From positions 255,920 through 319,919 of the forward strand of contig JBEKYR010000001.1 in the NCBI GenBank assembly GCA_049510745.1: a stretch of DNA of 64,000 nucleotides. The letters are read 5' to 3'. Below the pieces are notes generated by a model. That model ran no database searches. It worked only from the letters and a program-made list of their open reading frames with translations, and had not been told where the DNA came from. The stretch is from Verrucomicrobiota bacterium (GTDB lineage Bacteria; Verrucomicrobiota; Verrucomicrobiia; Limisphaerales; Palsa-1400). Numbering within the stretch: the first letter of the stretch is position 1; each line of letters opens with the position of its first letter. The position numbers and the translations under genes are program-made. Below are positions 19,792 through 63,262 of this stretch, piece by piece.

Positions 19792-19850
19792 GGAATCGAA
19801 GCCTTCCCCGTCGAGGTGGAGGTCAATTCCGGCTGGGGGGATACGGTAAT
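19792..19850 (+). pseudogene. comM: comM 5' fragment 1 (codons ~12-31)
   Basis: GIEAFPVEVEVNSGWGDTVM then diverges to AL*; matches 24965-25024. Confidence 0.9.
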
Positions 19851-19905
19851 GGCGTTATGAAAAGAACTGGTCTTGCGCGGGAAAGCGGATTACAGTTGTT
19901 TCGTT

Positions 19906-20121
19906 ATGCAGACAGTCGCCATTGAAATAGCGCAGGCCACACTCGCGGATCTGCTCAAACAGGTCGCGGACGGCGAGGAGTTCACCATCACACAGCATGG
20001 CCAGCCGAAGGCGAAGCTTTCGGCAGTCTCGTCGCGCAGGCGCCCGCAAGCGCGAGTGGGGAGTTTGCCGGGGGGAATATGGCTCTCGCCGGATTTTGAC
20101 GGGCCGGTGGATGACTTATAG
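19906..20121 (+). CDS. Phd/YefM family antitoxin (last few residues possibly lost)
   Basis: AQATLADLLKQVADGEEFTITQHGQPKAKL...GSLPGGIWLSPDFD. Confidence 0.85.
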   Translation: MQTVAIEIAQATLADLLKQVADGEEFTITQHGQPKAKLSAVSSRRRPQARVGSLPGGIWLSPDFDGPVDDL

Positions 20122-20293
20122 CTTTGAACTGCTGCCTGTTTCCTGTCTGCATTTGAATCAACTGGCGGCACTCCCGTTTCATCACCGTGATCCATTTGAC
20201 CGGTTGTTGATCGCCCAGGCACTTGCTGAAGACATGACCATTGTCAGGCGCGACACGGCATTTTCGCAATACCCGGCGAAAATTATCTGGTAA
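20122..20293 (+). pseudogene. vapC: VapC/PIN toxin, C-terminal remnant only
   Basis: FELLPV...LPFHHRDPFDRLLIAQA...; the N-terminal D-containing motif is absent. Confidence 0.85.
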
Positions 20294-20442
20294 TTGCGTT
20301 GGTTGTCGGGCCTTTCATGGTCAAGTGATCGGGGATGGGGGCGACTTCTTAAATTGATCAGGTTGTCTGAATCGCAGTCAGCCTGATTCGTGCGTTGACG
20401 CATACGCGATCTCTCGTTAGCCTTCGCTCGAACCATGTCGCA

Positions 20443-22002
20443 ATGAACACTCGGACCGCTCGCACCGGCTCAATCGCCGATCTCGTCCGCCCGTTGCTGG
20501 CCTGCCTGCTGCTGATCGGGCCGGCGGCGCGGGCCGGAATCGTCATCACCAATTTCACCGGAACGAATGTGATCCGCATTCTGCCCGCCGGCGATTCGAT
20601 CACCGATGACTGCGAGGTCGTGGGCGCGTGGCGGAAACCGCTCCAGCCGCTGCTCGACAGCAATCACATCCCCTTCATCTTCATCGGCCGCAACGTTTCC
20701 TCCCCGACCCTGCCCTATTTCACCAAGACCAAACACGAAGGCTACTGTGGCGCTGTCGTCGCTCCTCCGGGCGTGTTCGGGGCTTACTCTTACGCGCAAG
20801 CAAACAATTACACCGAGAAGACCCTTTCCGATGCCTTGAAGACCACGGTCGTCACCAACCCAAACATCGTCCTCGTGTTGATCGGCGCCAACGACATCGG
20901 CCGCGGGCGCGATCCCTACCACACGGCCTACATCGACATGACCAACCTGCTCAACATCATCCTCACAAACGTCCCTGCCGCGAATGTCATTTTCACGAAG
21001 ATTACCTCGCTCAGCAATGCCAGCCTCGGCTACGCCACGTATTCGACCAATGTCCCGATCTACAACAACGCCCTCGAACAGATGGTCAACCAGAAGCGGG
21101 CCGAGGGCCTGAATGTCACCCTGGCTGACATGTTTTCGGTCAACCCCTATGGGACCGCTTTCTACCTGAGCGATCATCTCCATGCCAACGCAGCGGGCTT
21201 GACCAATATCGCCAGGGAATGGTTCACGCGCATCCAAACCCTCATCACCGGCACCAACCAGATCACCGCCGCCCTCATCAGCGCAGGCGCGACCTGGTCG
21301 TATTCCGACACCGGGACCGATCTGGGCACCAACTGGACGCAACCTTTCTACGACGACAGCGCTTGGGCCAGCGCGCCGGCGCGATTCGGTTACGGCGAGC
21401 CGGTTCCCGAGACCCCGCTCAGCTTCGGGTCCAGCTCCACCAACGTCAACCCGACGACCTATTTCCGGACGAAGTTTGTCGTGCCGTGGAACGAAAATTT
21501 CACGAACCTCAATTTCCGCCTCTCGCAAACGGGCGGCGCGGTCGTCTGGCTCAACGGCGTCGAAGCCTACCGCACCAACCTCCCGGCCGGGCCAATCACC
21601 TATTCCACCCTCGCCACCGCGAACATCGGCAACGAAAACGAATACATCCTCTTCCCCACCAATCTGGCGCTGACGTTGCCGCCGGGAACCAACGTCATCG
21701 CGGTGGAAGTCCACCAAAGCGCTCTCACCAGACAGAACCTCGGCTTCGATTTCGAGTTGCTCGGGGGCGCCTTCGTGCTTCCCAACCCAACCCTCACGGC
21801 CTCCCTCGCCGGCAACAACATTTCCCTGACCTGGCCGCTGACCAACTGCAGCGCCTTCACTCTTTACTCTTCGGCCACGCTTGTTCCTCCAAACTGGCAG
21901 CCTTTCTCATCCAGTCTCTTCCAGACCAACAACGGCCAGATCACCGCCCCGATCACTCCCGGCCCCGGCTCCGCCTTCTTTCGACTCCAGCTTGGTCAAT
22001 AA
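20443..22002 (+). CDS. Secreted SGNH/GDSL hydrolase with beta-sandwich and Verrucomicrobia-type C-terminal domains
   Basis: GDSIT, IGANDI, DHLHAN; VIAVEVHQ; SAFFRLQ. Confidence 0.85.
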   Translation: MNTRTARTGSIADLVRPLLACLLLIGPAARAGIVITNFTGTNVIRILPAGDSITDDCEVVGAWRKPLQPLLDSNHIPFIFIGRNVSSPTLPYFTKTKHEGYCGAVVAPPGVFGAYSYAQANNYTEKTLSDALKTTVVTNPNIVLVLIGANDIGRGRDPYHTAYIDMTNLLNIILTNVPAANVIFTKITSLSNASLGYATYSTNVPIYNNALEQMVNQKRAEGLNVTLADMFSVNPYGTAFYLSDHLHANAAGLTNIAREWFTRIQTLITGTNQITAALISAGATWSYSDTGTDLGTNWTQPFYDDSAWASAPARFGYGEPVPETPLSFGSSSTNVNPTTYFRTKFVVPWNENFTNLNFRLSQTGGAVVWLNGVEAYRTNLPAGPITYSTLATANIGNENEYILFPTNLALTLPPGTNVIAVEVHQSALTRQNLGFDFELLGGAFVLPNPTLTASLAGNNISLTWPLTNCSAFTLYSSATLVPPNWQPFSSSLFQTNNGQITAPITPGPGSAFFRLQLGQ

Positions 22003-22110
22003 TTGCACCCCTGCGCGGAAATGATTTTTGGCGACCGGCGGCAGGCGCCATCCGTGTCAGTCCTCACTATTTGCTCTGACCGGCCGCGTAATCGTCCTCA
22101 CGGTTAATCC

Positions 22111-22284
22111 GCCTTCTCCAAAGGAGGGCAAAAACCGTATTGCCCTTGCGCCCCCGTTCGCCCAACACCCCCCCATGCTGGCGCGTGTCCTGTCCGCTGC
22201 GGTCAATGGCATCGAAGCCTTCCCCGTCGAGCTGGAGGTCAATTCCGGCTGGGGGATACGGTCATCGTGATTGTCGGCCTGCCC
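22111..22284 (+). pseudogene. comM: comM promoter plus 5' fragment 2 (to ~codon 37, -1 frameshift in G run)
   Basis: TTGCCC 22140, ATG 22175, MLARVLSAAVNGIEAFPVELEVNSGWG..VIVIVGLP. Confidence 0.93.
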
Positions 22285-22304
22285 GCGCTTTCACCAGCCT
22301 TCGT

Positions 22305-22622
22305 TCAAATCACGTCAATCAGATGAGTTGTCATATATATTTCTAGTTGATGGAAGCGAGACTTCAGGCCCTCTTTGAAGTCGCGGGAGAACTCCCGGTG
22401 TTCCACGAGGTCTTCGACATCAATAATGACACGCATTAAATCATCTGAATAGACGTCTTCCTCATGCCGCCAGCGCCCTCGAATGACCTGAGTTTCCCAC
22501 GAAACCGCGCCGAAATGATTCTCCAATTCAAGAAGCGTGTCGGCAATCAGGGCGTCAGGCACCGCTTGGCCGTCATTGAACCGCAGTGGCAGGAGTATCT
22601 CGTAACGACGTGAGGCGCTCAT
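22305..22622 (-). CDS. Small hypothetical protein, downstream gene of a TA-like pair
   Basis: MSASRRYEILLPLRFNDG...; overlaps the upstream partner. Confidence 0.7.
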   Translation of the reverse strand: MSASRRYEILLPLRFNDGQAVPDALIADTLLELENHFGAVSWETQVIRGRWRHEEDVYSDDLMRVIIDVEDLVEHREFSRDFKEGLKSRFHQLEIYMTTHLIDVI

Positions 22623-22794
22623 ACGTGGCAGGACCTTCGACGGTAAAATGGAAACTTTCCCCAGCAAGAGAGGCCAAAGCCGCTTCCGGCACCATCACCT
22701 CGCCCGTGGCCCAACTCTTGCCCGGGAAGCGTCTGGCGATGTAACCGAGCGCCCTTCGTTTGGATTCTTCATCGGCAAATCGTATGATGACCAT
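22573..22794 (-). CDS. Small hypothetical protein, upstream gene of a TA-like pair
   Basis: MVIIRFADEESKRRALGY...; preceded by TTGCCA-17-TATGCT-6-ATG (22801-22829). Confidence 0.7.
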   Translation of the reverse strand: MVIIRFADEESKRRALGYIARRFPGKSWATGEVMVPEAALASLAGESFHFTVEGPATYERLTSLRDTPATAVQ

Positions 22795-22845
22795 GATTGG
22801 AGCATAATGGCCTTTGCGAACTTTGGCAAGCCTGCGTGAACAACC

Positions 22846-23098
22846 CAAAACCGCATTGCCCTTGCGCCCGCCCCACGCGCAAGCGTCATCTTGACAATTT
22901 GTTCACTTGTCGCCCAACATTCCGTCCATGCTGGCGCCTGTCCTGTCCGCTGCCTTGTCCGCCATAGCGCCGGGAAGCGCGACGGCGGATGTCAACGGCA
23001 TCGAAGCCTTCCCCCGTCGAGGTGGAGGCGAGGAAATTGACATGGCGAAGGCCAAGGGGCAGGAATCCGTCAAGCGGGAGTTGGAGATCGCGGCAGGC
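22846..23098 (+). pseudogene. comM: comM promoter plus fragment 3 (5' end joined to codons ~190-212)
   Basis: ATG 22928; 36-bp insert; after VEVE it jumps to EEIDMAKAKGQESVKRELEIAAG, matching 25498-25570 (~500-bp deletion). Confidence 0.93.
22954..22989 (+). repeat. 36-bp REP-like hairpin element
   Basis: CTTG-TCCGCC ATA GCGC CGGGAA GCGC GAC GGCGGA. Confidence 0.8.
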
Positions 23099-23119
23099 AC
23101 AAAAAATGGCTTCTTTTGG

Positions 23120-23157
23120 TTTGCCATTTGGCATGGCAAATGGCATGGTTATTGGAA
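23120..23157 (+). promoter_or_regulatory. Promoter with overlapping palindromic operator
   Basis: TTGCCA-17-CATGGT-8-ATG; inverted repeats TTTGCCAT/ATGGCAAA and TGCCATTTG/CAAATGGCA. Confidence 0.65.
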
Positions 23158-23409
23158 ATGGAAGCCGTTATTACGATGGATAAATTTGGACGCATGGTTC
23201 TTCCCAGGCCAATGCGGAAGGCGCTGCAGATATCCCGGCCCGCCGCATTCAAGGCGGAGGTCATGGGCAACAAAGTGGAGCTTACTTTGGTCGCCCCGGA
23301 GCGAAGCGCGGTATTGAAAAAGCGGCGCGGTCTTCTAGTTGTTTCAACCGGCGGGCGAAAGTTTAACGCGGCTGAGGCGGTAAGCGCCATGCGCGAGGAG
23401 CGCTTCTGA
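23158..23409 (+). CDS. AbrB/MazE-fold antitoxin
   Basis: ITMDKFGRMVLPRPMRKAL, an AbrB-type N-terminus. Confidence 0.82.
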   Translation: MEAVITMDKFGRMVLPRPMRKALQISRPAAFKAEVMGNKVELTLVAPERSAVLKKRRGLLVVSTGGRKFNAAEAVSAMREERF

Positions 23410-23526
23410 TTACTGTTGCATTTACAGGCTGCGCGCCGGGGAGCTGCGAAACGCATTTTCACCATTAACGTCCGGCACTTTCAAATTTTCGCCCCTGACC
23501 TGAGAAGCATCATCTCGCTACCGTAG
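23410..23526 (+). pseudogene. PIN toxin, C-terminal remnant
   Basis: Manual translation LLLHLQAARRGAAKRIFTINVRHFQIFAPDLRSIISLP*; resembles the PIN T-x-N-x-R-H-F end; no N-terminus. Confidence 0.75.
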
Positions 23527-23552
23527 GCTCGGAACATTTTTCCACGCCTTGC

Positions 23553-23846
23553 GCAAAAACCGCATTGCCCTTGCGCCCGCCCCACGCGCGAGCGTCATCT
23601 TGACAATTTGTTCACTTGTCGCCCAACATCCCCTCATGCTGGCGCGTGTTTTGTCCGCTGCCTTGTCTGCCATCTTGTCCGCCAAAGCTCCGCCGGAAGC
23701 GGCGGCGGAAGCGCCGGGAAGCGCGACGGCGGAGGCCAACGGCATCGAAGCCTTCCCCGTCGAGGTGGAGGTCAATTCCGGCTGGGGGATACGACCGTGG
23801 TCATCGTCGGCTTTGCCGGATACGGCGGTAAAGAAATCGCGCGACC
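23553..23846 (+). pseudogene. comM: comM promoter plus 5' fragment 4 (to ~codon 46, compensating -1/+1 frameshifts)
   Basis: ATG 23636; 72-bp nested insert; ends ...LPDTAVKKSRD. Confidence 0.93.
23662..23733 (+). repeat. Nested pair of 36-bp REP-like elements
   Basis: Outer element CTTGTCTGCCAT|AGCGCC...GGCGGA is interrupted by an inner copy at 23674-23709. Confidence 0.8.
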
Positions 23847-23866
23847 AGGGCTTGATACGAAACCCA

Positions 23867-24097
23867 TCACGCCGTTTTCGATGAACGCCCCTTTGCCGGT
23901 TCCACGAGTTTGATTTGCTGCGCGTTGAGGATTTTGAAATGTCCTCCCTCGTCGTACAGCACGACCGTCTGGCGGTCGGGACTGACCATCAAATAATCAG
24001 TGTGGGCGACAACGAAGGATTGTTGGTTGCCCAAGACAATCCGAACCGGCTTAAATGGGTCGGCCTGCATCAATCCTTTGATCTCATCAGCAATCAT
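23867..24097 (-). CDS. Small PVC-type hypothetical protein (PFxPxRIxL motif)
   Basis: MIADEIKGLMQADPFKPVRIVL...; promoter TTGCCT-17-TATGTT-6-ATG (24104-24132). Confidence 0.75.
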   Translation of the reverse strand: MIADEIKGLMQADPFKPVRIVLGNQQSFVVAHTDYLMVSPDRQTVVLYDEGGHFKILNAQQIKLVEPAKGRSSKTA

Positions 24098-24172
24098 TGG
24101 CCGAACATAGTCGAGGATTGCGCGAAAGGCAATCTTCAAACCGCTGGATTTGCGCTGTTATGGGCATGGGCA

Positions 24173-24347
24173 CAAAAACCGCATTGCCCTTGCGCCCGCG
24201 TTGGCCCAACATCCCCCCATGCTGGCGCGTGTCCTGTCCGCTGCCTTGTCCGCCCTAGCGCCGAAAAGCGCGACGGCGGAGGTCAATGGAATCGAAGCCT
24301 TCCCCGTCGAGGTGGAGGTCAATACAGGCTGGGGTGACACAACCGTC
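24173..24347 (+). pseudogene. comM: comM promoter plus 5' fragment 5 (to codon 31)
   Basis: ATG 24219; 36-bp insert; ...NTGWGDTTV then diverges to ALITSISP. Confidence 0.93.
24245..24280 (+). repeat. 36-bp REP-like hairpin element
   Basis: CTTGTCCGCCCTAGCGCCGAAAAGCGCGACGGCGGA; removal restores GCT GCG GTC exactly. Confidence 0.85.
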
Positions 24348-24508
24348 GCACTAATTACGTCGATTTCGCCTATTTCATGTCCGCCGTTTCTCGTTCCGGA
24401 AATTCCCCGGTGTTACCCAGTTCAAAGTGAGGACTCCTGCGGACAGAACTTACTAAAGCTAGGCACCCAAGTCCCCCTCTGATATTTGAAAATACACAAG
24501 CCATCTTA

Positions 24509-24820
24509 ATGAGCCACATCGAACCAAAGCATATCCCGTTTGCTGTATCTCTGTTGCCATTCTTCGGCTTTGGTATTGCTCTCCCAGTCACGGTTCAAGA
24601 TTGGTATCACGGTCGGTTGATGCACGGAGATGGGATGGCCTTTTTGGTTGGATTGGTAATCGTTGCTGCGTGGGAGTGGGCGATTCTTCTGAGCGTCAAA
24701 TCGAAGAAAAGGCGAGGACAGGAGCGGCTCCTAGGACGAGAGCTTAGTTCATGGCATTGGGCGCCACCTGTTACTTTCGTGACAGGAGTCGGATGTGGTC
24801 TGATGTTTTTAGTCAGATGA
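24509..24820 (+). CDS. Small three-TM hypothetical membrane protein, lower GC
   Basis: Three hydrophobic segments; ATG start; fills the cassette. Confidence 0.55.
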   Translation: MSHIEPKHIPFAVSLLPFFGFGIALPVTVQDWYHGRLMHGDGMAFLVGLVIVAAWEWAILLSVKSKKRRGQERLLGRELSSWHWAPPVTFVTGVGCGLMFLVR

Positions 24821-24895
24821 GTCAGGGGTCGCTCCTTTGTCTGAAAAGGGGTCACTTTCCGTTCGGCCTTCCCCAAACGGGAGAAAAAATCCGCA

Positions 24896-24931
24896 TTGCC
24901 CTCGCGCCTTCATTCCCCCAACATCATGCCC
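24896..24931 (+). promoter_or_regulatory. Putative leaderless comM promoter
   Basis: TTGCCC-17-CAACAT-7-ATG; conserved with 17-nt spacing in fragments 2 and 5. Confidence 0.55.
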
Positions 24932-26458
24932 ATGCTCGCGCGTGTTCTGTCCGCTGCGGTCAATGGGATTGAAGCCTTCCCCGTCGAGGTGGAGGTCAAT
25001 TCCGGCTGGGGCGATACCACCGTCGTCATCGTCGGGTTGCCGGATACGGCGGTCAAGGAATCGCGCGACCGCGTCAGCACCGCCCTGACCAATTCCGGGT
25101 TCAAATTTCCCATGGGCCGGACCACCATCAACCTGGCCCCGGCGGATGTGCGCAAGGAGGGGCCGAGTTTCGATCTGCCCATCGCCATCGGGATGCTCGC
25201 AGCCAGCGACCAACTCATGTCCGATCTCACGGACCATTTCGTCATGGTGGGCGAACTGGCGTTGACCGGGCAGGTGCGGCCCGTCAAAGGCGTCCTGCCC
25301 GTCGCCTGGCGGGCGCGCGCGGAGAAAATGACCGGCGTTATCGTGCCGGTGGAAAACGCGGCCGAGGCGGCGGTGGTGGAAGGGTTGCAGGTCATCCCGG
25401 TGGAGAATTTGCGCCAGGCGGCCGGTTTTCTCGAAGGGGAAATCAAAATCGCGCCCACGCAAGTCGATCTGACCAAAGTTTTTGACCAGGCCTACGACGA
25501 AGAGATCGACATGGCGGAGGTCAAGGGCCAGGAATCGGTCAAGCGCGCTTTGGAAATCGCGGCGGCGGGCGGGCACAATTTGCTGCTCATTGGCCCGCCC
25601 GGCACCGGCAAATCCATGCTGGCCAAACGGCTGACCACCATTCTGCCCCCGTTGACGCTGGAGGAGGCTCTGGAGACAACCAAGATTCACAGCATTGTGG
25701 GACTGCTCAAACCCGGACAGGCGCTGGTCACGCGCCGTCCCTTCCGCACCCCGCATCACACCGCCAGCGACGCCGGGTTGCTGGGCGGCAACGTCAACCC
25801 GACTCCCGGCGAAATTTCCCTGGCCCATCACGGCGTGTTGTTCCTGGATGAATTGCCCGAATTCAAACGCGGCGTCCTCGAGACAATGCGCCAGCCGATC
25901 GAGGAAGGCCGCGTGACCATCTCGCGCGCGGCGGGCACCATGACCTTCCCAGCACAATTCATGTTGGTGGCAGCCATGAATCCAACGCCGGACGGAAAAA
26001 TGCCGGGAGAGTCTCGCAGCTCTCCTCGCGAGATTCAGAATTACTTGGGACGCATTTCTGGCCCGTTGCTCGACCGTATTGATTTGCATGTGGAAGTGCC
26101 GCAAGTGAAATTCCGCGAGATCAGCAGCGAACGGACGGGGGAAGATTCTGCCACCATCCGCGAGCGAGTGGTCGCGGCCCGAAGAAGGCAGCAGGCCCGT
26201 TTCGCCAACAAGCGTGCGGTGACCTGCAATGCCCGGATGGGACCGCGGGAATTGAAAAGCTATTGTGCGCTGGATGAGACGACCAAAGAACTGCTCAAGT
26301 TTGCCATGGCCGATCTCAATTTGAGCGCCCGAGCGTACGACCGTATCCTGAAAGTCGCCCGCACTATCGCCGATCTGGCTGGCTCCGAGAACATTGTCGG
26401 CGATCACATTGCCGAAGCGATCCAATATCGGTCCCTTGATCGCCAGTTCTGGACGTGA
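24932..26458 (+). CDS. comM: YifB/ComM Mg-chelatase-like AAA+ ATPase, intact
   Basis: IVGLPDTAVKESRDR, INLAPADVRKEGPSFDLPIA, GPPGTGKS, LFLDELPEF, GPLLDRID, SARAYDRILKVARTIAD. Confidence 0.97.
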   Translation: MLARVLSAAVNGIEAFPVEVEVNSGWGDTTVVIVGLPDTAVKESRDRVSTALTNSGFKFPMGRTTINLAPADVRKEGPSFDLPIAIGMLAASDQLMSDLTDHFVMVGELALTGQVRPVKGVLPVAWRARAEKMTGVIVPVENAAEAAVVEGLQVIPVENLRQAAGFLEGEIKIAPTQVDLTKVFDQAYDEEIDMAEVKGQESVKRALEIAAAGGHNLLLIGPPGTGKSMLAKRLTTILPPLTLEEALETTKIHSIVGLLKPGQALVTRRPFRTPHHTASDAGLLGGNVNPTPGEISLAHHGVLFLDELPEFKRGVLETMRQPIEEGRVTISRAAGTMTFPAQFMLVAAMNPTPDGKMPGESRSSPREIQNYLGRISGPLLDRIDLHVEVPQVKFREISSERTGEDSATIRERVVAARRRQQARFANKRAVTCNARMGPRELKSYCALDETTKELLKFAMADLNLSARAYDRILKVARTIADLAGSENIVGDHIAEAIQYRSLDRQFWT

Positions 26459-26474
26459 ACGACACCAGCCAGCG

Positions 26475-26731
26475 TCAGGCTGGGTTGACCGTGAAACTCT
26501 CCTGAGTCGGATCAAATCCAAGCAAAGCCACAACCCGCTCAAAGTGACTGGGATGTGGCTGGCACCGATTTGTCTCCCAGCCCCAAAGGGTTTTGACGCT
26601 CACCCCCAGTTCTTCGGCGCATTCCTTCCGGTTTTTCCTCAATTCCAGTCGCCGTTTCCTGATTCGTTGCCCCAGGGTGAGGGGAACTGCCGGTGCTAAA
26701 ATGGCAATGAATGGGGGTTCGTTGCCTTTGG
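26475..26731 (-). pseudogene. C-terminal half of a double-HTH (XRE) protein, paralogue of 57123-57662
   Basis: PKGNEPPFIAIL...RRLELRKNRKECAEELGVSVKTLWGWET aligns with 57215-57375. Confidence 0.85.
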
Positions 26732-27013
26732 ATGAAGACTAGGGAGTGTTGCCAGCGCGGCCAGAAGCGGAACAGGCTAACCCAAAGCAGTCGGTCAGCG
26801 GAGTGGAGTTTGGGTTTGAACGTCTGCCGTTTGAGCACGGCGAGTTGATGTGGGAGCGCCAGATTTTGAAGCACGAGCCGGGATTGGGATTGGAGTCCGG
26901 AGAGCAGGGAGCGGAGAAGCGCGAAGAAAATATCAAGCATGACGAGGCCGACTTTGGCCGATCTTATTGAAGAACCAACGTTTTCGAAGGATTATGGAGT
27001 TTTCGCTACCCAC
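26732..27013 (-). mobile_element. Truncated IS (integrase-core/IS481-like): left end plus transposase N-terminus
   Basis: Terminus TGTGGGTAGCGAAAACTCC at 27013; ...VLQNLALPHQLAVLKRQ..PKLHSADRLLWV..W; truncated at 26732. Confidence 0.7.
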
Positions 27014-36828: not shown

Positions 36829-37197
36829 ACGCCCCGATTCTTGAATCCTGAAGGAGGTTCTCCCTAACTGCCCGCGTTTGCTATGGGCAGGGAAGAAGCC
36901 CAGAGCGGCAAATCAGTGTCCATCGTCTCCGTCCTGCGCTGCTCGAGTTCGCTATGCGTCTGACCAACGCTGCGCGTGAAGCTGCTGTTTGTTGGGGCCA
37001 GCCTGGAGGATAGCACCGGCATCGGGGAGGACTTGCAGGCGCCCCATCCGCACCTCAGTGGAAAACTCATTTTCTTCCAAAAGCACATGATTCATAGTGG
37101 GGTATGATGCGGGCCGAATCCGAGGAATGACGGATAATCAGAGAATCCTTGCGAAATAAAATTGAAGGTTTTTGACCGGTGGGGCATAAACCTGGCC

Positions 37198-37717
37198 ATG
37201 TTAGCACGGGTCTTGTCTGCCGCTGTCAGCGGCATGAATCCATCACCGGACGGAAAAATGCCCGGGGGAGTCTCGCAACTCGCCGCGGGAAATCCAGAAT
37301 TATTTGGGCCGCATTTCCGGCCCATTGCTGGATCGAATTGACCTTCATATGGAAGTGCCGCAAGTGAAGTTCCGCGAGATCAGCAGCGAACGAACCGGTG
37401 AGAATTCCGCCACCATCCGCAAGCGGGTGGTCGCAGCCCGGATACGTCAACACACTCGATTTGCCAGCAAGCGCGACGTTACCTGCAATGCCCGGATGGG
37501 GCCGCGTGAATTAAAAAGGTATTGTGCGCTGGATGAGGCGACCAAAGAACTGCTCAAGTTTGCCATGGCCGATCTCAATTTGAGCGCCCGAGCCTACGAC
37601 CGCATTTTAAAAGTCGCCCGCACCATCGCCGACCCGGCCGGCGCCGATAACATCACGGGCGACCACATCTCCGAAGCCATCCAGTATCGTTCGCTTGACA
37701 GGCAGTTGTGGACGTGA
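37198..37717 (+). pseudogene. comM: comM copy with internal deletion (codons ~13-348) and +1 frameshift
   Basis: MLARVLSAAVSG joined to MNPSPDGKMPG at 37233/37234, then ...IQYRSLDRQLWT*. Confidence 0.95.
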
Positions 37718-40519: not shown

Positions 40520-40600
40520 GGTCGGGTGACCATCTCCCGCGCCGCCGGCACGATGACTTTTCCGTCGGAGTTTATGCTGGTCGCCGCGAGGAACCCGACG
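40520..40600 (+). pseudogene. comM: comM internal fragment, codons 326-352; attL-like junction
   Basis: GRVTISRAAGTMTFPSEFMLVAARNPT matches 25907-25987 and stops at ACG. Confidence 0.93.
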
Positions 40601-40819
40601 GCGTAAGCACTTCGACGGCATGATCTTGGAATGACATGCTGATTTGGTGAGGCACCACACTCACACATTAACCCAAAGTCTGCTCTGATTTGATCTCAAC
40701 AGATAATCACTGCTGGCATGGTTAACTGGCATCCATTCCTTTGCATGCAATGCCAACGTCGAACGCGTGGAGCCAGCGCGCAAAAGGTGCATGGATGTCT
40801 TGCGTCTGAAGCTCGTCAG

Positions 40820-57122: not shown

Positions 57123-57662
57123 TTAAAAGTCGCCCATCCGCTTGACGTTTGCCGGGCCAACTTCGAGGAACTTTTCAATTCCCTTCCGAAAAAGGGCAGT
57201 GGGCTGACGCTGACCGGTCTCCCAGCCCCAAAGGGTTTTGACGCTGACCCCCAGTTCTCTGGCGCATTCCTTCCGGTTTTTCCTCAATTCAATGCGTCGT
57301 TTTGTGATTCCTTGCCCAAGCGTCAACGGGCCTATCCGTGCTAAAATGGCAACGAATGGGGTTTCGTTGCCTTTGGGGCCTCCGAGCGTCGGATTGGTGA
57401 ACGGATCGCACCCTAAAAACTTCACCAAACGGGGTTGATTGGCCCACGTCGGATAGACCTTGTCCCTCTCCCACAAGCTTAGGGTCAGTTGGCTAACTCT
57501 CAGCCGCCGAGCAGCTTCCGACTGGCGGATTCCTAAACTGAAACGTTGCTTTCTCAGGTGTTCTCCGATAGTCTTGGGCTGCTTTGAAACAGGAAAACTG
57601 CGAGTCCAGACGGGGGAAATGTCCTGCCTTTCCACGTTCACAGTCCTTTCACAAAAAGGCAA
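57123..57662 (-). CDS. Double XRE-HTH protein abutting the attR-like junction
   Basis: Two HTH motifs (QSEAARRLRVSQLTLSLWE; ECARELGVSVKTLWGWE); nearest start inside the island is TTG 57662. Confidence 0.75.
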   Translation of the reverse strand: MPFCERTVNVERQDISPVWTRSFPVSKQPKTIGEHLRKQRFSLGIRQSEAARRLRVSQLTLSLWERDKVYPTWANQPRLVKFLGCDPFTNPTLGGPKGNETPFVAILARIGPLTLGQGITKRRIELRKNRKECARELGVSVKTLWGWETGQRQPTALFRKGIEKFLEVGPANVKRMGDF

Positions 57663-57670
57663 CGTCGCGC

Positions 57671-57745
57671 ACGCCGGACGGCAAAATTCCTGGCGAATCG
57701 CGCAGTTCGCCGCGCGAAATCCAGTACCGCCAGTTGTGGACGTGA
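57671..57745 (+). pseudogene. comM: comM 3' remnant from codon 352; attR-like junction; two internal deletions
   Basis: TPDGKIPGESRSSPREIQ|YR|QLWT* matches 25985-26038 and the comM C-terminus. Confidence 0.9.
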
Positions 57746-62023: not shown

Positions 62024-63262
62024 TTATAACATGCGAGGCTCCACTGCTGGAGTCGTAGCTAATTTCTTGAGAAACCGTGGTTCGAGCCACTCGTCAACAG
62101 GTGAACGTTGATAATGTATTCCAAGTAGCTTCCTTAGTTTAAGCGGTGGTTCAATTCGACTCATGTATGCAATTAACTCATCAATCGCCGGAAGAAATTC
62201 AGTATGCAGAATAAATCCCTTTCCATCTGGGGATTGCTTATAAACCAGGCTTCCTTGTCCGTGAAGAGAAGGTAACCGAGAAATCGCGACTCTGTAAGCA
62301 ATCGCCGTCGGAGATGTATTCGTAAGTGTGGCAAGATGTTCGTACTCCCTGTTTATATTCCGTAAAAATAAACTCACATTATCAGGATTCGAGAAAAGTA
62401 ACTTAAGGTCTTTCAATATGTCTATGTTTCCTTGTGTACGGATAAACAATCGTCTTAAATATTCTCGTTCTATTTGATCTTTGCCAACTAAGAGCGGTTC
62501 TAGAAATCTATTTACGCGGCGTCTAAAGCTTTGATTTTTGTAATATCTCTCCACCGTTGACCCAGCGATGATTAATAAGACCACAATAGCTATTAGAATA
62601 ATGGTCCCGACTATGAAAACAACGAGCCTTACCAGTTGAACGGATAAAGTCCCATAAAAAACGCTCGTCCATAAGCCTGGAACGGCATTTTCCTTACGGT
62701 TATTATTAATAATGGGATTCTCAATACCCGCAATTTTGCCGACAATGTGTAATTCCGGTTCTTCTTCTACCCGATTAAGAAGCTGGATTTCGATCGTAAA
62801 GTATTTATTCCTCTCAAGAATAATCTTTTGAAATATTATTAAGTTATTTGAGGCAACTTGAGGATTGATGTTGTTCCGGATGTAATCCGAATTGAATGAA
62901 ACCACCTTTGGCACATCTACAATCTGTCCTCCTTTGATGCTTATGCCCCAAGGCATTGTTTGATCAAAATCTGCCTGTTTAATGTGAACTTCACCGTCAT
63001 TCCGGACAGTTAAGGTCAAAACTCGGAGATTTTTCTTCAGCGCATATATGTCTTCGCCCCTATATCGAATTTCCAACTCCTTGACAGGCTGGTGGACGTC
63101 CAAAACCTTGGAATCACCGACTAATTCATAAGAAATATGTGGTTGCTTTTCGTGAATTGCATAATAGATGCCAGGAACACCGATAAGCACGGTCGCCAAA
63201 ACTCCTATAAGTGCCCAAATTGTCGCTTTTTCTAACGTTCTCTTTTCCGACTGTTCACTCAT
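62024..63262 (-). CDS. AT-rich hypothetical membrane protein
   Basis: 412-aa ORF, two TM segments, markedly AT-rich versus flanks. Confidence 0.8.
   Translation of the reverse strand: MSEQSEKRTLEKATIWALIGVLATVLIGVPGIYYAIHEKQPHISYELVGDSKVLDVHQPVKELEIRYRGEDIYALKKNLRVLTLTVRNDGEVHIKQADFDQTMPWGISIKGGQIVDVPKVVSFNSDYIRNNINPQVASNNLIIFQKIILERNKYFTIEIQLLNRVEEEPELHIVGKIAGIENPIINNNRKENAVPGLWTSVFYGTLSVQLVRLVVFIVGTIILIAIVVLLIIAGSTVERYYKNQSFRRRVNRFLEPLLVGKDQIEREYLRRLFIRTQGNIDILKDLKLLFSNPDNVSLFLRNINREYEHLATLTNTSPTAIAYRVAISRLPSLHGQGSLVYKQSPDGKGFILHTEFLPAIDELIAYMSRIEPPLKLRKLLGIHYQRSPVDEWLEPRFLKKLATTPAVEPRML

Follow-up and report, generated by a model that had tools for sequence, protein, structure and literature searches.

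Stacked copies of the comM start beside an intact comM gene in a Verrucomicrobiota genome: possible relics of serine-recombinase insertion, reshuffled by homologous recombination

Why should the start of a gene be repeated several times over, always in the same direction, immediately upstream of the intact gene itself? The question is raised by a 64,000-nt stretch of a Verrucomicrobiota genome of the Palsa-1400 lineage (assembly GCA_049510745.1, contig JBEKYR010000001.1, positions 255,920 to 319,919; hereafter the window, numbered from its first letter), in which truncated copies of the start of comM, a gene of the YifB family, alternate with small, mutually unrelated genes. A preliminary description of positions 22111..24931 had seen here a periodic array of mini-cassettes, each bringing in a replacement comM promoter and 5' end, restoring the gene and pushing older units upstream. 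The reading that we prefer, and hold to be probable though far from assured, is that insertions by large serine recombinases (LSRs) seeded the comM relics of the array, which homologous recombination, acting on the repeated 5' segments, has since spread and reshuffled.

The comM start, that is, a promoter-like region followed by 5' coding sequence, is present in five direct copies (repeat search, family D3) that begin at 22130, 22846, 23555, 24174 and 24886. Their start-to-start distances of 716, 709, 619 and 712 bp, and the TTGCCC anchors at 22140, 22856, 23565, 24184 and 24896, are the values already given in the preliminary description. That the repeat is the start of a host gene also holds: the fifth copy is an intact comM/YifB gene (24926-26458, 510 codons) with the Pfam domains ChlI, Mg_chelatase and Mg_chelatase_C and a score of 630 bits against an NCBIfam YifB cut-off of 362, and the upstream copies match its start with BLAST E values of 1e-20 to 6e-44, far beyond chance. 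When aligned, the copies share a sharp left edge, an A-run followed by CCGCATTGCCC, and diverge in length and content beyond it, the upstream ones being unequal (~150-290 nt) and differing from one another by indels. We count repeat positions from this edge at 24886, position 693 being window 25578 (comM codon ~217) and position ~1100 window ~25985 (codon ~352). Further left lies a sixth relic, and this promoter-less piece, with a 2.3-kb unit behind it, places the beginning of the array 2.3 kb to the left of the span first reported. From left to right the copies are:

19792-19844, plus strand: outermost comM 5' relic, no promoter part, matching comM 24965-25017 with 94% identity
22130-22283, plus strand: copy 1, promoter-like region and comM codons 1 to ~37, then cut; 82.7% identity to the intact copy
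22846-23094, plus strand: copy 2, with a promoter insert of ~40 nt and, after codon 9, a hairpin insert of 36 nt; part of its interior is deleted
23555-23846, plus strand: copy 3, with the promoter insert of copy 2 and an expanded hairpin insert, cut ~215 nt into the repeat
24174-24348, plus strand: copy 4, without the promoter insert, with the hairpin insert, truncated
24886-26458, plus strand: copy 5, promoter-like region and intact comM/YifB

The ~40-nt insert, located between the TTGCCC and CAACAT hexamers, is confined to copies 2 and 3, an insert of at least 36 nt after comM codon 9 is found in copies 2, 3 and 4, and copies 1 to 4 end at different points (~22283, 23094, 23846 and 24348). 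These differences in indels and end points indicate that the copies are not fresh local duplications. We regard it as very improbable that local tandem duplication, replication slippage or an assembly artefact multiplied the comM start: head-to-tail direct repeats are what such events would leave, but the copies differ by indels of 36-82 nt, markers that they have in common with copies in other genomes, their spacers are mutually unrelated, and the same structure occurs in independent assemblies. The short upstream copies are truncated pseudogene starts of comM, products of deletion, and short open reading frames (ORFs) that begin like ComM, being pseudogene starts, call for caution in annotation.

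In the conserved stretch before comM, TTGCCC is followed after 17 nt by CAACAT and ~9 nt further by ATG, and this arrangement is plausibly a promoter for a nearly leaderless mRNA. The assignment relies on where the stretch lies and on its conservation across genera: at intact comM loci of other genera, homology to the window starts at the same left edge. A consensus promoter scan does not flag TTGCCC/CAACAT. That scan returned 4 sites in 5.4 kb, as compared with 2.0 +/- 1.8 in shuffled sequences, and only 2 of them fall within the four spacers, so that the earlier statement that three of the four spacers carry a recognisable promoter of their own is not borne out.

The whole array is 100% identical in two metagenome contigs, L095 and L103, and is present letter for letter in contigs of four peat-metagenome runs. 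Besides, contigs in two of the runs (X2 and X4) join 19847, the end of the outermost relic, to 24351, the end of copy 4, 7 further letters separating the two; the depth of this joint is 6.9 against ~28 in X2 and 5.2 against ~15 in X4, and it might represent a variant without four of the units or the array of a relative, its shorter side being only 21 letters long.

Arrays of this kind are widespread in relatives. In the bacterial family, 24 of 31 genomes are matched by a 167-nt probe taken from copy 4, and 21 of the 31 have two or more matching places, with 7-11 in some (matches less than 400 nt apart were merged as one place). Among metagenome contigs, an exact 20-mer of the repeat picked out 92 stretches; a comM 5' fragment is present in 82 of the 90 loci analysed, and two or more fragments in 34 of these 82. 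For the window, the 90 metagenome loci and 40 loci of relatives, we measured the distance between adjacent copies wherever both have the promoter region and the gene start. The 39 distinct pairs span 462 to 4140 bp, with 18 at or below 1000 bp, and the regular period of ~620-720 bp in the preliminary description does not survive this comparison. We take the agreement of 709, 712 and 716 bp to be a coincidence, small units forming a broad class in which such sizes can fall together. The left flanks of ~140 distinct copies group into six recurrent types, of which A, B and C correspond to the ends of the window's units 3, 1 and 2, respectively, and D, of ~50-60 nt, also precedes many intact comM genes, the window's included. 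One relative, G024, holds two full-length comM genes (C127:6642-8165 and C109:9703-11226), 93% and 90% identical to the window protein; the second could be a real paralogue, an element-borne copy or the result of strain mixing in the assembly.

The spacers measure 320-560 nt, are unrelated to one another in sequence and carry one or two small ORFs each, on either strand, just as had been described. Numbered from the left, and including the large unit behind the outermost relic, the cargo is as follows:

19873-20121 and 19997-20293, plus strand: unit 0, part 1, Phd/YefM antitoxin and PIN-domain ORF, respectively
20395-22002, plus strand: unit 0, part 2, GDSL-lipase-like protein of 535 aa (Pfam PF00657 and PF13472)
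22305-22848, minus strand: unit 1, two overlapping small ORFs of ~73 and ~105 aa (ORF list); flank type B
23158-23536, plus strand: unit 2, AbrB/MazE-like antitoxin ORF to 23409 and PIN toxin 3'-end relic at 23414-23536; flank type C
23867-24139, minus strand: unit 3, 90-aa ORF divergent from the next copy (ORF list); flank type A, the commonest
24509-24820, plus strand: unit 4, hydrophobic 103-aa ORF (ORF list)

Type II toxin-antitoxin genes are thus part of the cargo. Unit 0 has the Phd/YefM and PIN pair (PF02604 at 3e-7, PF01850 at 1.3e-5; NCBIfam phd_fam), and unit 2 an AbrB/MazE-like ORF, with a weak MazE match (E = 0.022), next to a deleted PIN gene. The homologues of unit 2 in G014 and G016 are ~300 bp longer and encode a PIN ORF in the additional DNA, the gene being intact in G014; it is the deletion of these ~300 bp, with the toxin gene, that brings unit 2 to 709 bp. 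No family match was obtained for units 1, 3 and 4 in Pfam (E <= 1) or NCBIfam, and the Atlas results for units 1 and 3, hypothetical proteins commonest in Verrucomicrobiota, are a lead only, with nothing usable for function.

As the preliminary description had anticipated, cargo of the array sits beside comM fragments elsewhere: three of the four units in the span that it reported, units 1-3, recur as DNA between comM fragments in four other genera with 83-92% nucleotide identity, unit 1 in five other genera if a 61-nt match in G045 is counted. Unit 1 was found in G006 (92% over 172 nt), G019 (83%) and G045, unit 2 in G014 (92%), G016 (89%) and, in part, G019, and unit 3 in G046 (86%), G044 (83%) and, partially, G019; flank type A, which belongs to unit 3, recurs in at least 10 other loci. 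Between these genomes comM itself is 81-83% identical.

These values bear on the view that the units were laid down once in the ancestor of the family, have been inherited vertically and are now only decaying. A fossil array of this sort would explain that unit 3 cargo (83-86% between genera) is nearly as divergent as comM, that the array is the same in the contigs of the four runs and the two metagenome contigs, and that a matching recombinase was not found in the window's genome. Unit 2 (89-92%) and part of unit 1 (92%), however, exceed the identity of comM across genera. Moreover, the order and location of shared units vary from genus to genus, unit 2 lying ~450 kb from comM in G016 and unit 3 standing before unit 1 in G019:C42, and pairs of loci with 97-99% identical flanks differ in their units. 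We therefore consider a purely fossil array to be quite unlikely.

A source for the repeats is suggested by fuller comM fragments found elsewhere, which stop ~693 nt from the left edge, at codon ~217, immediately before the Walker A codons. Nine metagenome loci end at this point (L079, L096, L124, L125, L128, L137, L139, L140 and L143, of which L096 and L128 are one sequence), and there the fragment is followed by a conserved ~30-nt arm with ATGTTGTATCCAAT or a near variant, and then by unrelated cargo. The same breakpoint appears in the comparison of L125 with L031 and in G007, where comM is split at codon ~217 by an element that has a 2-bp repeat and terminal inverted repeats perfect over 17 nt, and where a 605-aa Resolvase+Recombinase protein is encoded beside the right junction; G029 has the same layout of gene and junction. 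A second breakpoint lies at codon ~352. It is occupied in G012 by a 59-kb insert encoding a TrwB-like protein and an LSR that differs from the serine recombinase of G007, and L143, which we list under this site, has a 58%-identical recombinase adjoining a truncated fragment. The two sites fall within the window's intact gene at:

25551-25616, plus strand: putative attachment site of the G007-type LSR, with dyad arms (inverted repeat I2) around a breakpoint at ~25578-25590 (codon ~217)
25975-25990, plus strand: second recombinase breakpoint, comM codon ~352, G012-type element

The last piece of copy 2 (23029-23094), which matches comM 25498-25563, stops at the same comM position as the recombinase junctions, but a different sequence comes after it. 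We take the segment first duplicated to have been ~693 nt long, ending at such an attachment site, and the ~150-nt copies here to be what deletion has left of it. The target itself is a familiar one: in the accessible part of PMC10083194, comM-like genes are the commonest target of serine integrases, with 12.4% of predicted site-specific LSRs directed at Mg-chelatase-like genes, and the accessible part of PMC9203015 describes sr1WO of phage WO, a serine recombinase with a target of the same kind.

Recombinases were sought around the arrays. Pfam searches of the window ORFs found no gene with Resolvase plus Recombinase domains; in the genome as a whole, PF00239 has a single match, on contig C49 and not on the window's contig (C1), and the 14 matches to PF00589 are all on contigs other than C1. 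Among 103 ORFs from 34 related loci, Pfam detected no recombinase inside the 5' arrays, and the only serine recombinase was that of G012, in the 59-kb element at codon ~352. In five relatives, the sole PF00589 match near an array is a truncated C-terminal piece (G045:C140 9925-10071), which may belong to an unrelated element. Searching 201 genomes of the order for the element-arm motif with up to 2 mismatches gave noise only: the listed matches all had 1-2 mismatches and a reversed control matched too, in a sample that held three genomes of the family besides the window's own. No inverted copy of the arm was found beside intact comM in the loci examined.

These observations also bear on an interpretation close to that of the preliminary description, in which non-autonomous units of ~0.7 kb, each with a replacement comM promoter and 5' end, behave as integron-like mini-cassettes and are inserted into comM, site-specifically, by a recombinase encoded elsewhere. 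The sharp left edge common to ~140 distinct copies and six flank types would suit such cassettes, as would the recurrence of a right end ~693 nt in, with its conserved arm, and the limited set of cargo types found in many genomes; small circles would bear one hybrid site. Most copies, however, including four of the five upstream copies here, are without the codon-217 site, and an enzyme specific for that site cannot be moving them. A cassette site would, moreover, pair a host-type half with an element-type half, and serine-integrase sites of this composition are not known to recombine with an empty host site. There is no tyrosine recombinase on the window's contig, the Resolvase-family match is on another contig, and no G007-type recombinase was found in the genome. 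Finally, neither an integrase nor an attC-type site nor a fixed crossover point was found in the short copies, contrary to the likeness to integrons and CRISPR (clustered regularly interspaced short palindromic repeats) that had been drawn at first; in the comparison that follows, the switch between strains lies inside a fragment (~135-236 nt) and not at a fixed end. Site-specific mini-cassettes are, in our estimation, unlikely.

Change in the arrays can be traced in four pairs of nearly identical metagenome loci. Between L034 and L126, with 98.6% identical flanks, the left ~135 nt of the L034 fragment is 96.8% identical to the intact comM of L126 and 79% to the L126 fragment, while the remainder is 97.2% identical to the L126 fragment, the switch occurring between ~135 and 236 nt; directly left of the intact comM, L034 has 260 nt and L126 has 3.3 kb, with a gene for an FHA-AAA ATPase. 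Judging from these alignments, a double crossover between a resident comM and incoming DNA of the form 'fragment - cargo - comM start' would yield just such a hybrid. L107 differs from L104 (97-98.6% flanks) by an additional toxin-antitoxin cassette of the unit 2 type, which has a short promoter relic on one side and the intact comM on the other. L031 and L125 are 98.9% identical up to codon ~217, where the comM of L031 continues intact and L125 has the arm and foreign DNA, and what distinguishes L033 from L079 is a unit that comprises the arm and an ORF of 320 aa. In three of the four pairs the difference is at or beside the intact comM, in line with the polarised gain that the preliminary description had proposed to look for. 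Its suggestion that an incoming unit restores the gene and pushes older units upstream survives in part: the L034/L126 hybrid, in which the resident 5' allele now forms the left half of an upstream fragment, has the predicted form, and it is the integron-like, periodic, site-specific cassette that finds no support. Some cut points are shared between genomes: left of type A cargo, three loci have the fragment ending at repeat position 185/186 and two have it ending at 215, which indicates that fragment and cargo travel together.

Our preferred reading, LSR-seeded relics reshuffled by homologous recombination, would unfold in four steps. In the first, for which relatives provide examples, LSRs would use the attachment sites that comM of this family has at codons ~217 and ~352, an insertion at codon ~217 leaving a 5' piece of ~693 nt that ends at an element arm. 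In the second, an intact comM would be regained on the recombinase side of the insert with loss of the recombinase gene, so that the old 5' piece and the distal cargo remain upstream. Incoming intact comM could supply a patch that repairs the gene, anchored in its adjacent half and joined illegitimately at the far end, or an element could bring a whole comM copy. On both sides of comM (the 3' side is described below) the recombinase-proximal junction is lost and distal cargo kept, which fits either route. We note beside these routes the second degenerate comM at 37150-37717 and the two full-length genes of G024. In the third step, to which the mosaics and the differences between near-identical strains lend support, the repeated 5' segments would act as homology arms: DNA of the form 'fragment - cargo - comM start' would recombine with the resident comM by ordinary homologous recombination, an exchange that would add a unit beside the intact gene, give it a new promoter and 5' end and leave the old 5' end upstream as a hybrid, and recombination between copies would also delete and reshuffle units. 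In the fourth, visible in the copies here, the displaced copies are pseudogenes that have shrunk by deletion and gained small repeat insertions, down to the ~150-290 nt now seen, the similar unit sizes being coincidental.

Several observations weigh against this sequence of events. The intermediate of the second step was not seen at any locus examined, nor was an element found with both a recombinase and a replacement 5' end. At E <= 1e-10, the search of the window's genome (94% complete) gave no relative of the G007 recombinase, with the consequence that the first step is deduced for this lineage from one relic junction, that of copy 2. The six recurrent flank types all join the repeat within ~2 nt of the same A-run, which looks site-specific, and this shared left edge is not accounted for by homologous recombination alone; selection keeping the promoter intact is only a suggestion. 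The divergence of unit 3, near that of comM, could mean that much of the cargo sharing is vertical. The array, which the preliminary description had proposed to compare across strains, does not vary among the contigs of the four runs or between the two metagenome contigs, although contigs hide rare variants, and the sole joint seen, 19847 to 24351, with its shorter side of 21 letters, may stem from another organism.

The third step admits a bolder extension, which we put forward tentatively and think rather less probable than not: the comM start may serve as a portable homology arm, making the array an integrase-free cassette system that serine-recombinase insertions have seeded. If so, DNA of the form 'comM fragment - cargo - comM start', once taken up by a member of this family, would insert upstream of comM by RecA alone and leave the gene unharmed, small toxin-antitoxin and other small genes would circulate among genera much as integron cassettes do, and the system would centre on a gene that itself serves natural transformation.

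Among known systems, we class the array under tandem accretion at a serine-recombinase hotspot, as a variant in which small cassettes show signs of having been exchanged without an integrase. Accretion of this kind is exemplified by the composite islands of the staphylococcal cassette chromosome (SCC), and the cis-mobilizable elements of ICESt1 are reportedly an analogue. The window has tandem units, each bounded by direct repeats of the end of the target gene; these repeats do not appear to be functional attachment sites for a resident or neighbouring integrase, four of the five upstream copies being without the codon-217 site, and no cognate recombinase was found. The units here also differ from such accretion in being mostly shorter than 1 kb, and the strain differences reveal hybrid repeats that fit homologous exchange. 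In the accessible part of PMC3146451, the ssrA islands of Dehalococcoides are likewise tandem units by one conserved gene with direct repeats of its end, some of them without integration genes, but the repeats are ~20 bp of the 3' end, whereas here they comprise the promoter and up to 693 nt of the 5' end. The LSR elements of comM/YifB genes, as far as the accessible parts of PMC9203015 and PMC10083194 describe them, have the same target but split the gene, its pieces flanking a prophage; here an intact gene is accompanied by stacked 5' copies of at most 693 nt, with no recombinase found. Such elements are carried by the relatives G007, G029, G012, L125 and L143, at two fixed comM sites and with palindromic element arms. 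The dusA-associated islands, in the accessible part of PMC4482086, also integrate within the 5' end of a conserved gene, but by an integrase of their own and at a single site, in contrast to the many stacked copies here, where no integrase was found.

The resemblance to integron arrays lies in small cargo, often of the toxin-antitoxin type, set in a row with a recurring separator and common to several genomes. Unlike integrons, the locus has no intI, attI or attC: contig C1 is without a PF00589 match, the cassette ends are without attC, cargo lies on both strands, and the separator is the start of a host gene. The 36-nt hairpin, present in only three of the five copies and inside the repeat, presumably lacks the attC core motifs, judged by eye against the consensus. 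CRISPR arrays have short equal repeats of tens of nt and short unique spacers, as opposed to the unequal repeats of 150-290 nt and ORF-bearing spacers of 320-560 nt found here. In Acinetobacter, comM is an insertion hotspot for islands of the AbaR/Tn6022 type, a likeness to the window, but these, being transposons that bring transposition genes of their own, interrupt comM a single time and leave no array of gene starts. Literature searches combining comM with serine recombinase/attB or with prophage/serine integrase, subscription journals lying outside their coverage, brought up no description of stacked comM starts.

What becomes of a gene after integrase insertion has rarely been followed. 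The present arrays offer a view of this aftermath across a peat bacterial family, in which comM is intact again, with stacked relics of itself and small shared cargo genes to either side. Should gene starts act as homology arms, they would provide a simple route of cassette exchange without an integrase.

On the 3' side, comM relics mirror those of the 5' side within 26459-57740:

37150-37717, plus strand: a second comM, degenerate, in which a promoter-like region of its own and the 12 initial codons run directly into the final ~480 nt of the gene (PF13335)
40520-40603, plus strand: comM piece ending at the codon-352 breakpoint
57636-57740, plus strand: relic junction of element arm, comM from the codon-352 breakpoint and gene end

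The arm at 57636-57670 resembles those at the right junction of G012 and in G017. The ~31 kb downstream of comM, which include two sensor kinases, a TonB receptor and a Bat/MoxR operon, may be accreted or rearranged DNA. Relics on both sides of comM are also found at a metagenome locus, L078, in the order fragment to ~707 nt, 340 nt, intact comM, 130 nt, element arm, 1.3-kb cargo (by our own reading resembling DUF4062) and the 3' part of the old comM. The latter starts ~674 nt in and overlaps the upstream fragment by ~33 nt, and given this overlap of the old comM pieces no single simple model fits the layout cleanly.

The inserts of the upstream copies have counterparts elsewhere in the genome. 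The promoter insert of copies 2 and 3 (22872-22911 and 23581-23620) is one copy of a dispersed repeat (CCCACGCGCCAG... GACAATTTGTTCACTTGTC) that occurs at C1:128961, C1:143889, C9:96704, C55:409 and C64:11401 and on C20, C26, C29 and C46. In these other places it is made up of 24-nt units in tandem, which also form the ends of two contigs (C42:15-135, C62:24334-24447); the ~40-nt repeat may be a multi-site transposon end or a regulator-binding repeat. The insert after comM codon 9 is a two-stem hairpin of 36-39 nt (22951-22996, 23659-23740 and 24242-24287), seen in displaced fragments only and never in intact comM. Additional sequence of at least 34 nt is present at this position in 17 of the 111 distinct copies scanned, and insert lengths of 46-50 nt after codon 9 disrupt the comM frame. 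The inner stem shows paired changes between copies (GCGC/GCGC, GCTCC/GGAGC, GTCTC/GAGAC, GTCTCC/GGAGAC), and similar hairpins at five unrelated places of the genome (C1:69753, C34:24085, C6:100109, C6:182794 and C17:52174) make the insert resemble a repetitive extragenic palindromic (REP)-like element.

Right after comM, positions 26475-26940 hold a 55-aa HTH_31 ORF on the minus strand and a 133-aa ORF without Pfam match, whose N-terminus we take to be like an insertion sequence (IS) transposase leader. In G045, three adjoining tyrosine-recombinase matches on one short contig (C393:928-3501) presumably resemble a recombinase-in-trio element. Near the right end of the window, a 412-aa ORF on the minus strand (62024-63262), with no Pfam match and a third-codon-position GC content (GC3) of 0.39 as against 0.6-0.8 in its neighbours, is possibly foreign.

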